Assembly (NCBI RefSeq): GCF_003018255.1
Contig: NZ_CP027440.1
Source of the DNA: Escherichia coli
GTDB taxonomy: Bacteria > Pseudomonadota > Gammaproteobacteria > Enterobacterales > Enterobacteriaceae
Direction: 5' to 3' (one strand)
Length of the DNA stretch: 64,000 nucleotides
The position numbers were made by a program, and so were the translations under genes. Shown one piece after another: positions 28,617 to 34,241 of this stretch. Below the pieces are notes generated by a model. That model ran no database searches and was not told where the DNA came from. It saw only the letters and a list, made by a program, of their open reading frames with translations. How positions within the stretch are numbered: the stretch's first letter is position 1; each line of letters starts with the position of its first letter.

Positions 28617-28724
28617 TCCCTCATTCCCGCTGTGGCCCACAGCGGGAACATCGTTACCACTCTATCACATAGATTTTACCCGCCCCCTCTCCTATTCTTT
28701 TCAGTGTGCTCTCAGGAGGTTTCT

Positions 28725-29393
28725 ATGTGTGGACGCTTTGCCCAATCCCAAACGCGTGAAGATTACCTCGCGTTTCTCGCGGAAGATATTGAACGCGATA
28801 TTCCCTACGATCCCGAACCTATTGGCAGATACAACGTCGCGCCGGGAACCAAAGTCCTTCTGCTCAGTGAACGTGATGAACACCTTCATCTGGATCCGGT
28901 TTTCTGGGGATATGCTCCCGGATGGTGGGATAAACCGCCGCTGATTAACGCCCGCGTAGAAACTGCCGCAACCAGTCGCATGTTTAAACCGCTCTGGCAA
29001 CACGGTCGGGCAATCTGTTTTGCCGATGGCTGGTTTGAGTGGAAAAAAGAAGGCGACAAAAAACAGCCTTATTTTATCTATCGCGCTGACGGACAACCTG
29101 TTTTTATGGCCGCGATAGGTAGCACACCGTTTGAGCGTGGTGACGAAGCCGAAGGATTTTTGATCGTCACTGCGGCGGCAGATCAAGGTCTGGTAGATAT
29201 TCATGACCGCCGCCCGCTGGTTCTGTCGCCAGAAGCTGTACGGGAATGGATGCGGCAAGAGGTTGGCGGTAAAGAAGCCTCAGAAATTGCTGCCAGTGGC
29301 TGTGTGCCAGCAAACCAGTTCACCTGGCACCCGGTATCGTGCGCGGTGGGTAATGTTAAAAACCAGGGAGCGGCGTTAATTCAACCTGTTTGA
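28725..29393 (+). CDS. yedK: SOS-response-associated peptidase (SRAP) YedK, abasic-site-processing protein
   Basis: ORF 28632..29393; start trimmed to MCGRFAQSQTREDYLAFLAE (Met-Cys2 N-terminus typical of SRAP proteins; 222 aa). Confidence 0.88.
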   Translation: MCGRFAQSQTREDYLAFLAEDIERDIPYDPEPIGRYNVAPGTKVLLLSERDEHLHLDPVFWGYAPGWWDKPPLINARVETAATSRMFKPLWQHGRAICFADGWFEWKKEGDKKQPYFIYRADGQPVFMAAIGSTPFERGDEAEGFLIVTAAADQGLVDIHDRRPLVLSPEAVREWMRQEVGGKEASEIAASGCVPANQFTWHPVSCAVGNVKNQGAALIQPV

Positions 29394-29503
29394 TAAGCCT
29401 GGAGATTATTGATCAACAATACTGCGTCATAAGAAATCTCTATTAGACAAAGATTTCAGTACCTGTTGGCATATTGCAAAAATAACACCAATACGGAATC
29501 GTC

Positions 29504-29983
29504 ATGTTCACGATTAAAACAGATGATCTCACCCATCCAGCAGTGCAAGCATTAGTGGCTTACCATATTTCCGGCATGCTGCAGCAGTCTCCCCCCGAAA
29601 GTAGTCATGCTTTAGATGTGCAAAAATTACGTAACCCGAAAGTGACATTCTGGTCAGTATGGGAAGGCGAACAACTCGCAGGAATTGGTGCGCTGAAGTT
29701 GCTGGATGATAAACATGGCGAACTGAAATCAATGCGTACCGCGCCAAATTATTTACGTCGGGGTGTCGCCAGTCTGATTTTACGCCACATTTTGCAGGTC
29801 GCCCATGACAGATGCCTTCATCGCCTGAGCTTAGAAACGGGTACACAGGCTGGATTTACGGCCTGCCATCAACTTTATTTGAAACATGGATTCGTTGATT
29901 GCGAACCGTTTGCTGATTATCAACTTGATCCGCACAGTCGATTTTTGTCATTGACGCTATGCGAAAATAATGAATTGCCATGA
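29504..29983 (+). CDS. yedL: GNAT-family N-acetyltransferase YedL
   Basis: 159-aa ORF MFTIKTDDLTHPAVQALVAYHISGMLQQSPPESSHALDV... with acetyl-CoA-binding-like region RRGVASLIL. Confidence 0.85.
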   Translation: MFTIKTDDLTHPAVQALVAYHISGMLQQSPPESSHALDVQKLRNPKVTFWSVWEGEQLAGIGALKLLDDKHGELKSMRTAPNYLRRGVASLILRHILQVAHDRCLHRLSLETGTQAGFTACHQLYLKHGFVDCEPFADYQLDPHSRFLSLTLCENNELP

Positions 29984-30387
29984 GCCAGACGCAGCACATT
30001 CTTGCATTCGACGTGCTGCGCCTTTATTTATTATCAGCCGCAAATGTCTTGTCCTTAGACGCTCTTTCCACATGCGCCACAAGAAACCTCTATTCCAGTG
30101 ACACAATTATGCCTGATTATTTCCCTAGCCCGGAATATGAATAAAAACATCAAATAAGATGAAATTATCAAAATATTAATGTTGCGTCTGAGGTCGTAAC
30201 AACATCCGACGTGGTGATATGTCAAATGAGACACTCTGATGGTCAAAGGGTTTATCGCGTTTACAGATCGTGGATGGCAGAAAACTTTCAGAATCAGGTT
30301 TCCATTTTAAACCAGAAATTAAGTGAGTTTGTCCCATCCATGCCCCACGCGGTGAGATCGGATGTAATCAACAACAGGTTACAAAAC

Positions 30388-30702
30388 CTACACCTGCATG
30401 CTCATCACTTCCTGATACGCCGCCACCAGCTTATTACGCACCTGAATCCCCATTTGCATTGAAACTGAGGCTTTTTGCATATCGGTCATCACATCGTTTA
30501 ACGCCACGCCGGGTTCACCGAGAGTGAATTTTTCTGCCTGCGTGCGGGCGGCTGTTTGTGTATCGCTTATGCGATCGAGCGCGGCGTGCAGCTGCCCGGC
30601 AAAACTAATGGTCGGTTGTGGCAGTGATTCCTGTGTACGCGCACTCATCGCCGTAGCCTGTAACTGGCTGATAACCCCTTCAATCCCCTGTATCGCTGAC
30701 AT
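30388..30702 (-). CDS. fliE: flagellar hook-basal body complex protein FliE
   Basis: ORF 30388..30732; start trimmed to [22 protein letters not shown] (104 aa). Confidence 0.92.
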
Positions 30703-30916
30703 TTTCATCTCCCGGATAATTTCTGGCAGCAAAGCCTACCAGTAAGTCAATAAGACAAAGGCGCTAAATAGCAACAAAAAAACGGGTTTATTGGCGGATA
30801 GAAAAAAACGAAAGCACAAATAATGGGAGCGTCAATTTTTCGAGTTTGCTGACCCGGGAGTGAGTCTTGTTCCACTTTGCCAATAACGCCGTCCATAATC
30901 AGCCACGAGGTGCGCG

Positions 30917-34241
<3,325 letters not shown>

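Follow-up and report, generated by a model that had tools for sequence, protein, structure and literature searches.

The closest described counterpart of this locus is in Escherichia coli K-12. The yedL-fliE interval of strain MG1655 (2011080-2012699; 1,620 bp) is annotated with two pseudogenes: yedN (b4495; 1,129 bp, minus strand) and intG (b1936; 279 bp). The latter is assigned to 'cryptic prophage PR-G' and overlaps the end of fliE. yedN is an EspR-type (LRR/DUF5503) effector gene that is pseudogenised in K-12. In E. coli O157:H7, a 1,958-bp tandem duplication (yedL' - espR - int') yields two intact genes of this type, in the order yedL - espR3 - int' - yedL' - espR4 - int' - fliE. Their products are 379 aa long, and EspR4 contains DUF5503 plus LRR. 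RefSeq product names describe the EspR proteins as T3SS effectors, which they reportedly are. The two copies of the duplication in the O157:H7 strain F6321 (L003, 3675-5616 and 5633-7573) are 95% identical, and the duplication also leaves this strain with an additional integrase stub and with a second copy of yedL truncated at its 5' end.

Other strains have a lambdoid (DLP12-like) remnant, emrE-ybcL-ybcM, abutting fliE. An example is the ST131 strain EC958 (L088, 8532-12146); in K-12 these genes are part of prophage DLP12. The emrE remnant of strain 2018-10-1CC contains a Tn10-like tet(B) element with ISVsa5 on its flanks. Integrases related to the one described below are present in Enterobacter phage vB_EclS_CobraSix and Escherichia phage IdasGreatGrand, and in both phages an excisionase gene precedes int. 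Our search of the literature on yedN, yedL, EspR3/4 and fliE found no paper on the yedL-fliE junction.

We found a shorter version of this locus in the window, the 64,000-nucleotide stretch of E. coli DNA analysed here. yedL and fliE are convergent and are separated by 404 bp, from the end of yedL at 29983 to the fliE stop codon, which begins at 30388. The features of the region are:

28648-30387, no strand: variable slot from the yedF terminator to the fliE stop codon, holding yedK, yedL and the integrase remnant.
29504-29983, plus strand: yedL, GNAT N-acetyltransferase, 159 aa (ORF; Pfam Acetyltransf_1, E = 9e-14).
29987-30034, plus strand: putative intrinsic terminator of yedL, made up of a GC-rich 8-bp stem (29990-29997 / 30013-30020) and, after it, a T-rich tail.
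30056-30122, no strand: linker, 67 bp, kept in all non-emrE structural types and containing repeat D1R.
30119-30123, no strand: indel junction, from the ends of the blastn blocks; K-12 has 1,212 bp here and O157:H7 has espR3/espR4.
30123-30222, no strand: AT-rich segment, 100 bp, 36% GC, common to K-12, O157 and the yedL-less type.
30223-30372, plus strand: intG remnant, corresponding to the final ~47-50 codons of a gene for a phage tyrosine integrase (DNA homology, tblastn and C-terminal alignment).
30372-30400, no strand: att region, 29 nt that recur unchanged immediately 3' of int in the free phage IdasGreatGrand.
30388-30705, minus strand: fliE, flagellar hook-basal body protein, 104 aa (ORF; Pfam FliE, E = 5e-27).

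The annotation of the nearest genomes carries the yedL label on the same gene.

We compared the window with K-12 by pairwise blastn and obtained two collinear blocks. Window 29400-30122 matches K-12 2010496-2011218 (96.4% identity), and window 30119-30900 matches K-12 2012431-2013212 (95.4% identity), the second block taking in intG. The two genomes therefore differ in length here by a single segment of 1,212 bp, present in K-12. Four base pairs at the junction (30119-30122) can be assigned to either flank. The extra segment has a GC content of 33.7% and runs from the yedN stop codon to ~75 bp upstream of the yedN start. No EspR or YedN homolog was found anywhere in the window by tblastn with EspR3 and EspR4 as queries. 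The position, yedL, the 67-bp linker, the 100-bp segment and the integrase stub overlapping the end of fliE are the same in the window and K-12, with flanks 95-96% identical. Thus, of the two features that mark PR-G, the window has an intG abutting or overlapping the fliE 3' end and lacks a yedN between yedL and intG. The O157:H7 locus also has the same flanks and integrase stub as the window; it differs in its duplication and two effector genes, of which the window has none.

These measurements bear out part of the original prediction, which had placed yedL and fliE ~400 bp apart, with yedN missing relative to K-12 and the K-12 interval longer than that of the window. Other parts need correction. 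The K-12 interval was put at several kilobases, and it is 1,620 bp. yedM, which was thought to lie within it, is missing from the current K-12 annotation. A multi-kilobase yedN-yedM-intG island was proposed to be absent from the window, and only one 1.2-kb gene is missing. The spacer was also described as AT-rich and non-coding. It is mildly AT-rich (41.8% GC versus 50.9% window-wide), but it is not featureless non-coding DNA because it contains an integrase remnant at 30223-30363/30372, so that intG, said to be absent, is still represented.

The remainder of the spacer has few recognizable features. The yedL-proximal hairpin (-16.3 kcal/mol as RNA; z = -0.97) folds no better than shuffled sequence, and neither does the fliE-proximal hairpin. 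Both are plausible terminators, the yedL hairpin by virtue of its position. A promoter and terminator consensus scan of the spacer gave no more than shuffled sequences did, and an Rfam scan of 29400-31000 gave no family at threshold. A CssrB match on the yedL terminator hairpin was rejected (20.8 bits, against a gathering score of 76). An 18-codon ORF (30002-30058; LHSTCCAFIYYQPQMSCP followed by a stop codon) overlaps the same hairpin. In some genomes PGAP labels the matching ORF (L005, 5983-6039) a 'cyclic lactone autoinducer peptide', which is probably a spurious annotation. In K-12, O157 and the yedL-less type, the 100-bp AT-rich segment runs on into the espR upstream region. Among 50,697 phage records, neither espR nor this segment had a DNA match; the integrase part alone was matched.

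We found that the integrase remnant is the 3' end of a phage gene. DNA homology to four integrase genes begins sharply at 30223; two of these are the longer remnants of other Escherichia lineages (L009 and L012), and two are in loci with a full-length gene (L010 and L035). The stub translation, QMRHSDGQRVYRVYRSWMAENFQNQVSILNQKLSEFVPSMPHAVRSDVIN, aligns with the C-terminus of the IdasGreatGrand integrase, QMGHSDAQMVYRVYGSWMAENNQDQVSILNQKLSEFAPSMPHAVGSDVIKQA followed by the stop codon, and corresponds to residues ~383-431 of 431. The catalytic-Tyr region is kept and all N-terminal parts are missing, so that the stub has neither a complete catalytic domain (R-K-H-R-H/W-Y) nor the arm-binding N-terminal domain. 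With only the last ~50 of 431 codons left, it cannot be functional. A Pfam search with the 47-aa stub gave no match, whereas a full-length Citrobacter homolog matched both domains. In JNE120442, the nearest complete genome (99.7-99.9% identical to the window here), the PGAP annotation likewise has a partial integrase at this place, between yedL and fliE. For window 1-25000, identity over the 25 kb rises no higher than 99.6% in the set of 5,426 complete genomes, a value reached by JNE23-011 and JNE112863. At 30370-30372, where the att hairpin follows the integrase stop region, the window lacks 11 bp (ACTATGCTTGT-like). They are present in Escherichia sp. E1V33 (L009), in EC958 and in phage IdasGreatGrand (L090).

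Full-length versions of this integrase are found beside fliE in related genera. By scanning one genome per species with FliE, we found six loci, in several Citrobacter species and in Enterobacter soli, in which a full 431-aa integrase gene is convergent with fliE and its stop codon is ~30 bp from that of fliE. The protein has the domains Arm-DNA-bind_2 (PF12167) and Phage_integrase (PF00589). It is 95% identical to the integrase of CobraSix, 87% identical to that of IdasGreatGrand, and ~70% identical to the integrases of Fels-1, Gifsy-2 and phiP27.

The phage sequence next to int identifies the attachment site. Directly 3' of int, IdasGreatGrand reads CAACAGGTTACAAAACCTACACCTGCATG, the same as window 30372-30400. 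These 29 nt take in a small hairpin (AGGTT-ACAA-AACCT) as well as the terminal 13 nt of fliE, so the fliE 3' end is a phage attachment site. Beyond the 29 nt, IdasGreatGrand goes on to encode the final residues of fliE (MMSMQV and stop) with synonymous codons. The identity and the synonymous end codons together indicate that the phage carries a replacement fliE terminus along with the small hairpin. The hairpin now sits at the position expected for a fliE terminator and may act as one. Empty and occupied sites diverge right after the fliE stop codon, and the Citrobacter empty sites share only CTACACCTGCATG. We found a single copy of the att core within the window, and no second copy (attR) between yedF and the integrase stub. 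The far prophage end therefore cannot be placed, and yedK, yedL and espR are putative cargo on account of their position. Unlike the two phages, the window is left with ~50 of 431 int codons and lacks both an excisionase and a second att copy; it is a dead scar.

Based on these results we think it very probable that the 404-bp spacer is an espR/yedN-less variant of the old, decayed lambdoid prophage remnant known in K-12 as PR-G. A phage with an integrase of the CobraSix/IdasGreatGrand type would have integrated at the fliE 3' end, exchanging the last fliE codons and the terminator hairpin for its own copy. Nearly all of the prophage DNA would then have been deleted. The leftovers in the window would be the ~50 integrase codons, the 100 bp of orphan DNA, the 67-bp linker and, judging by position, yedL and yedK. 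In a further step in the window's lineage, espR/yedN (1,212 bp) would most likely have been lost by simple deletion. The loss was probably without phenotype, since yedN is already a pseudogene in K-12.

Deletions demonstrably operate at this locus, as yedL has been lost through two different junctions. yedL is flanked by a 22-nt direct repeat, D1 (TGCGYCAYAAGAAAYCTCTATT), with one copy upstream (D1L, 29423-29444) and the other at 30073-30094 (D1R); the window copies read TGCGTCATAAGAAATCTCTATT and TGCGCCACAAGAAACCTCTATT. One group of yedL-less genomes has a 603-bp gap and keeps both D1 copies. The other has a 650-bp gap with one D1 left, the outcome that D1 x D1 recombination would give. Strains 1223, CUWW06 and F8704 have a single D1 copy and no full yedL. 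A D1-related copy is also present upstream of yedL in the divergent lineage L012. The type with the 603-bp gap has the same espR-less junction as the window and appears to have arisen from the window type by another deletion.

These yedL deletions are one reason to think that the window lost espR and that the indel is, somewhat more probably, a simple deletion. Another is that the type without yedL and espR keeps both D1 repeats together with the espR-less junction of the window. A third is the lack of mobility features that could explain a later insertion into a dead scar: at espR there is no transposase or mobility gene, no inverted repeat and no clean target duplication. In addition, K-12 yedN and O157 espR4 are ~85% identical and their flanks ~95%, and the lower identity of the gene suggests that espR has long been resident.

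The main alternative is that the prophage scar is shared, that the junction in the window is the older state, and that espR plus ~75 bp was inserted later in an ancestor of the K-12/O157 type. We consider this possible, though rather unlikely. The left boundary of the indel coincides exactly with the espR stop codon, which is tidy for a random deletion and counts against one, and the segment has the size of a gene. The junction signature TTTCCCT is common to two otherwise divergent espR-less haplotypes, which indicates an old event. In lineage L012, which has yedL and in which the integrase remnant is longer, a gene for a 204-aa membrane protein takes the espR position and espR is missing, so the slot has been remodelled more than once. 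Against a later insertion are the missing mechanism and the deletions seen at the locus, and effector genes of the espR kind are said normally to arrive as prophage cargo. Two further points speak against deletion. The espR-less junction, GATTATTTCCCT|AGCCC, cannot be obtained by simply joining the present-day occupied flanks, from which it departs at 3-4 of 20 positions. The two espR-less types are 97% identical in the linker and 89.8% identical in the right flank; this mismatch points to recombination (mosaic haplotypes), and no polarity can be read from it. As to microhomology or a target duplication, the picture is ambiguous: the flanking 11-mers match at 6 of 11 positions, and both flanks agree equally well with the empty junction. 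Deletion of espR is the reading that we favor.

It could also be imagined that yedL (a 603-650-bp unit) and espR (a 1,212-bp unit) are independently exchangeable modules, gained and lost beside the fliE att site by a site-specific, cassette-like process. All four combinations of presence and absence of the two genes exist, the segments have sharp, gene-sized boundaries and segregate independently, and yedL has the D1 repeat on either side. However, the neighbouring recombinase is a phage-type stub and not an integron integrase, no repeat flanks espR, and the differing yedL-less junctions fit ordinary deletions better than a cassette array. We regard such a process as very improbable.

We also compared the window with sites that are actually empty. 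At nine Citrobacter loci, yedF and fliE converge as direct neighbours, with a terminator hairpin in the 50-200 bp between them. In the window, 1,740 bp (28648-30387) lie between the yedF terminator and the fliE stop codon. Homology to five other Escherichia lineages (L009, L011, L012, L013 and L025) stops at 28647-28652, just past the yedF terminator hairpin, and resumes at 30223-30372. This gap indicates that the whole of 28648-30387 is variable DNA, located where the prophage would be. Both yedK, which encodes an SRAP peptidase, and yedL lie inside it. yedK is missing from all five of the other lineages. The slot contains unrelated genes in several of them (L012, 7206-7820; L011/L013, 6895-8066; L009, 7027-10456), and its contents elsewhere include the 204-aa membrane protein, a 133-aa secreted protein and, beside yedF, a conserved 134-aa ORF beginning MDQVAIFQKMFEQV.

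The site in the window is thus not unoccupied. According to the original prediction, the window shows a hotspot in its unoccupied state; a hotspot that had never been occupied, with the yedN-yedM-intG island gained by K-12, would account for the 1,212-bp difference in length and for the lack of an EspR homolog. We consider this highly improbable. It is refuted by the integrase 3' end at 30223-30372, which together with the phage-derived att arm still lies beside fliE, where a virgin att site would have no integrase or phage DNA between the core genes. Moreover, the real empty state is yedF abutting fliE, and yedK and yedL are themselves inside the inserted slot.

We determined how common each structure is by running junction-specific queries against 5,426 complete E. 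coli genomes. The final counts are from longer queries, as shorter ones (1,166 and 151) were slightly inflated by joining non-collinear pieces in genomes of the duplication type. The window type (yedL - int' - fliE) was found in 132 genomes (2.4%), including E2348/69, IAI39 and CE10. A type with neither yedL nor espR (yedK - 392 bp - fliE, for example Ecol_224) accounts for ~1,013 genomes (1,145 - 132; 18.7%). The yedN/espR segment is present in 1,541 (28.4%), among them 448 (8.3% of all genomes) with the O157-type duplication junction. The commonest type, with 2,597 genomes (47.9%), has the emrE-ybcL-ybcM remnant abutting fliE. It has the same attachment end as the window, with homology from window 30252 through fliE, and differs in that int-proximal lambdoid genes are kept, yedK is truncated, and there is no yedL or espR. 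Together these classes make up 97% of the genomes. Two window-type genomes (WP8-S18-CRE-02 and GSH8M-2) have an IS1 insertion (~776 bp) in the region matched by window 29400-30900. With at least five structural types among the 5,426 genomes, the locus is an insertion hotspot, as had been proposed.

An assembly artefact, either a collapsed repeat or a mis-join, could in principle produce a short spacer, but the same structure is unbroken in the 132 complete window-type genomes, including the three strains named above, and we give this explanation virtually no weight.

The finding itself is ordinary and of a kind already known: the strain-specific absence of a pseudogene-sized segment from an annotated cryptic-prophage scar. 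The earlier account of the K-12 annotation is corrected, in that the interval is 1.6 kb and yedN is the sole difference. Two points are mildly new. One is that the intG stub can be linked to a living phage family with the fliE terminus in its attP, by which the fliE 3' end is the attachment site of the CobraSix/IdasGreatGrand integrase family. The other is the structural census, whose five types could help those who use espR3/espR4 as virulence markers. Among E. coli strains, differences of this kind within a decaying prophage scar are common, and the junction matters little.
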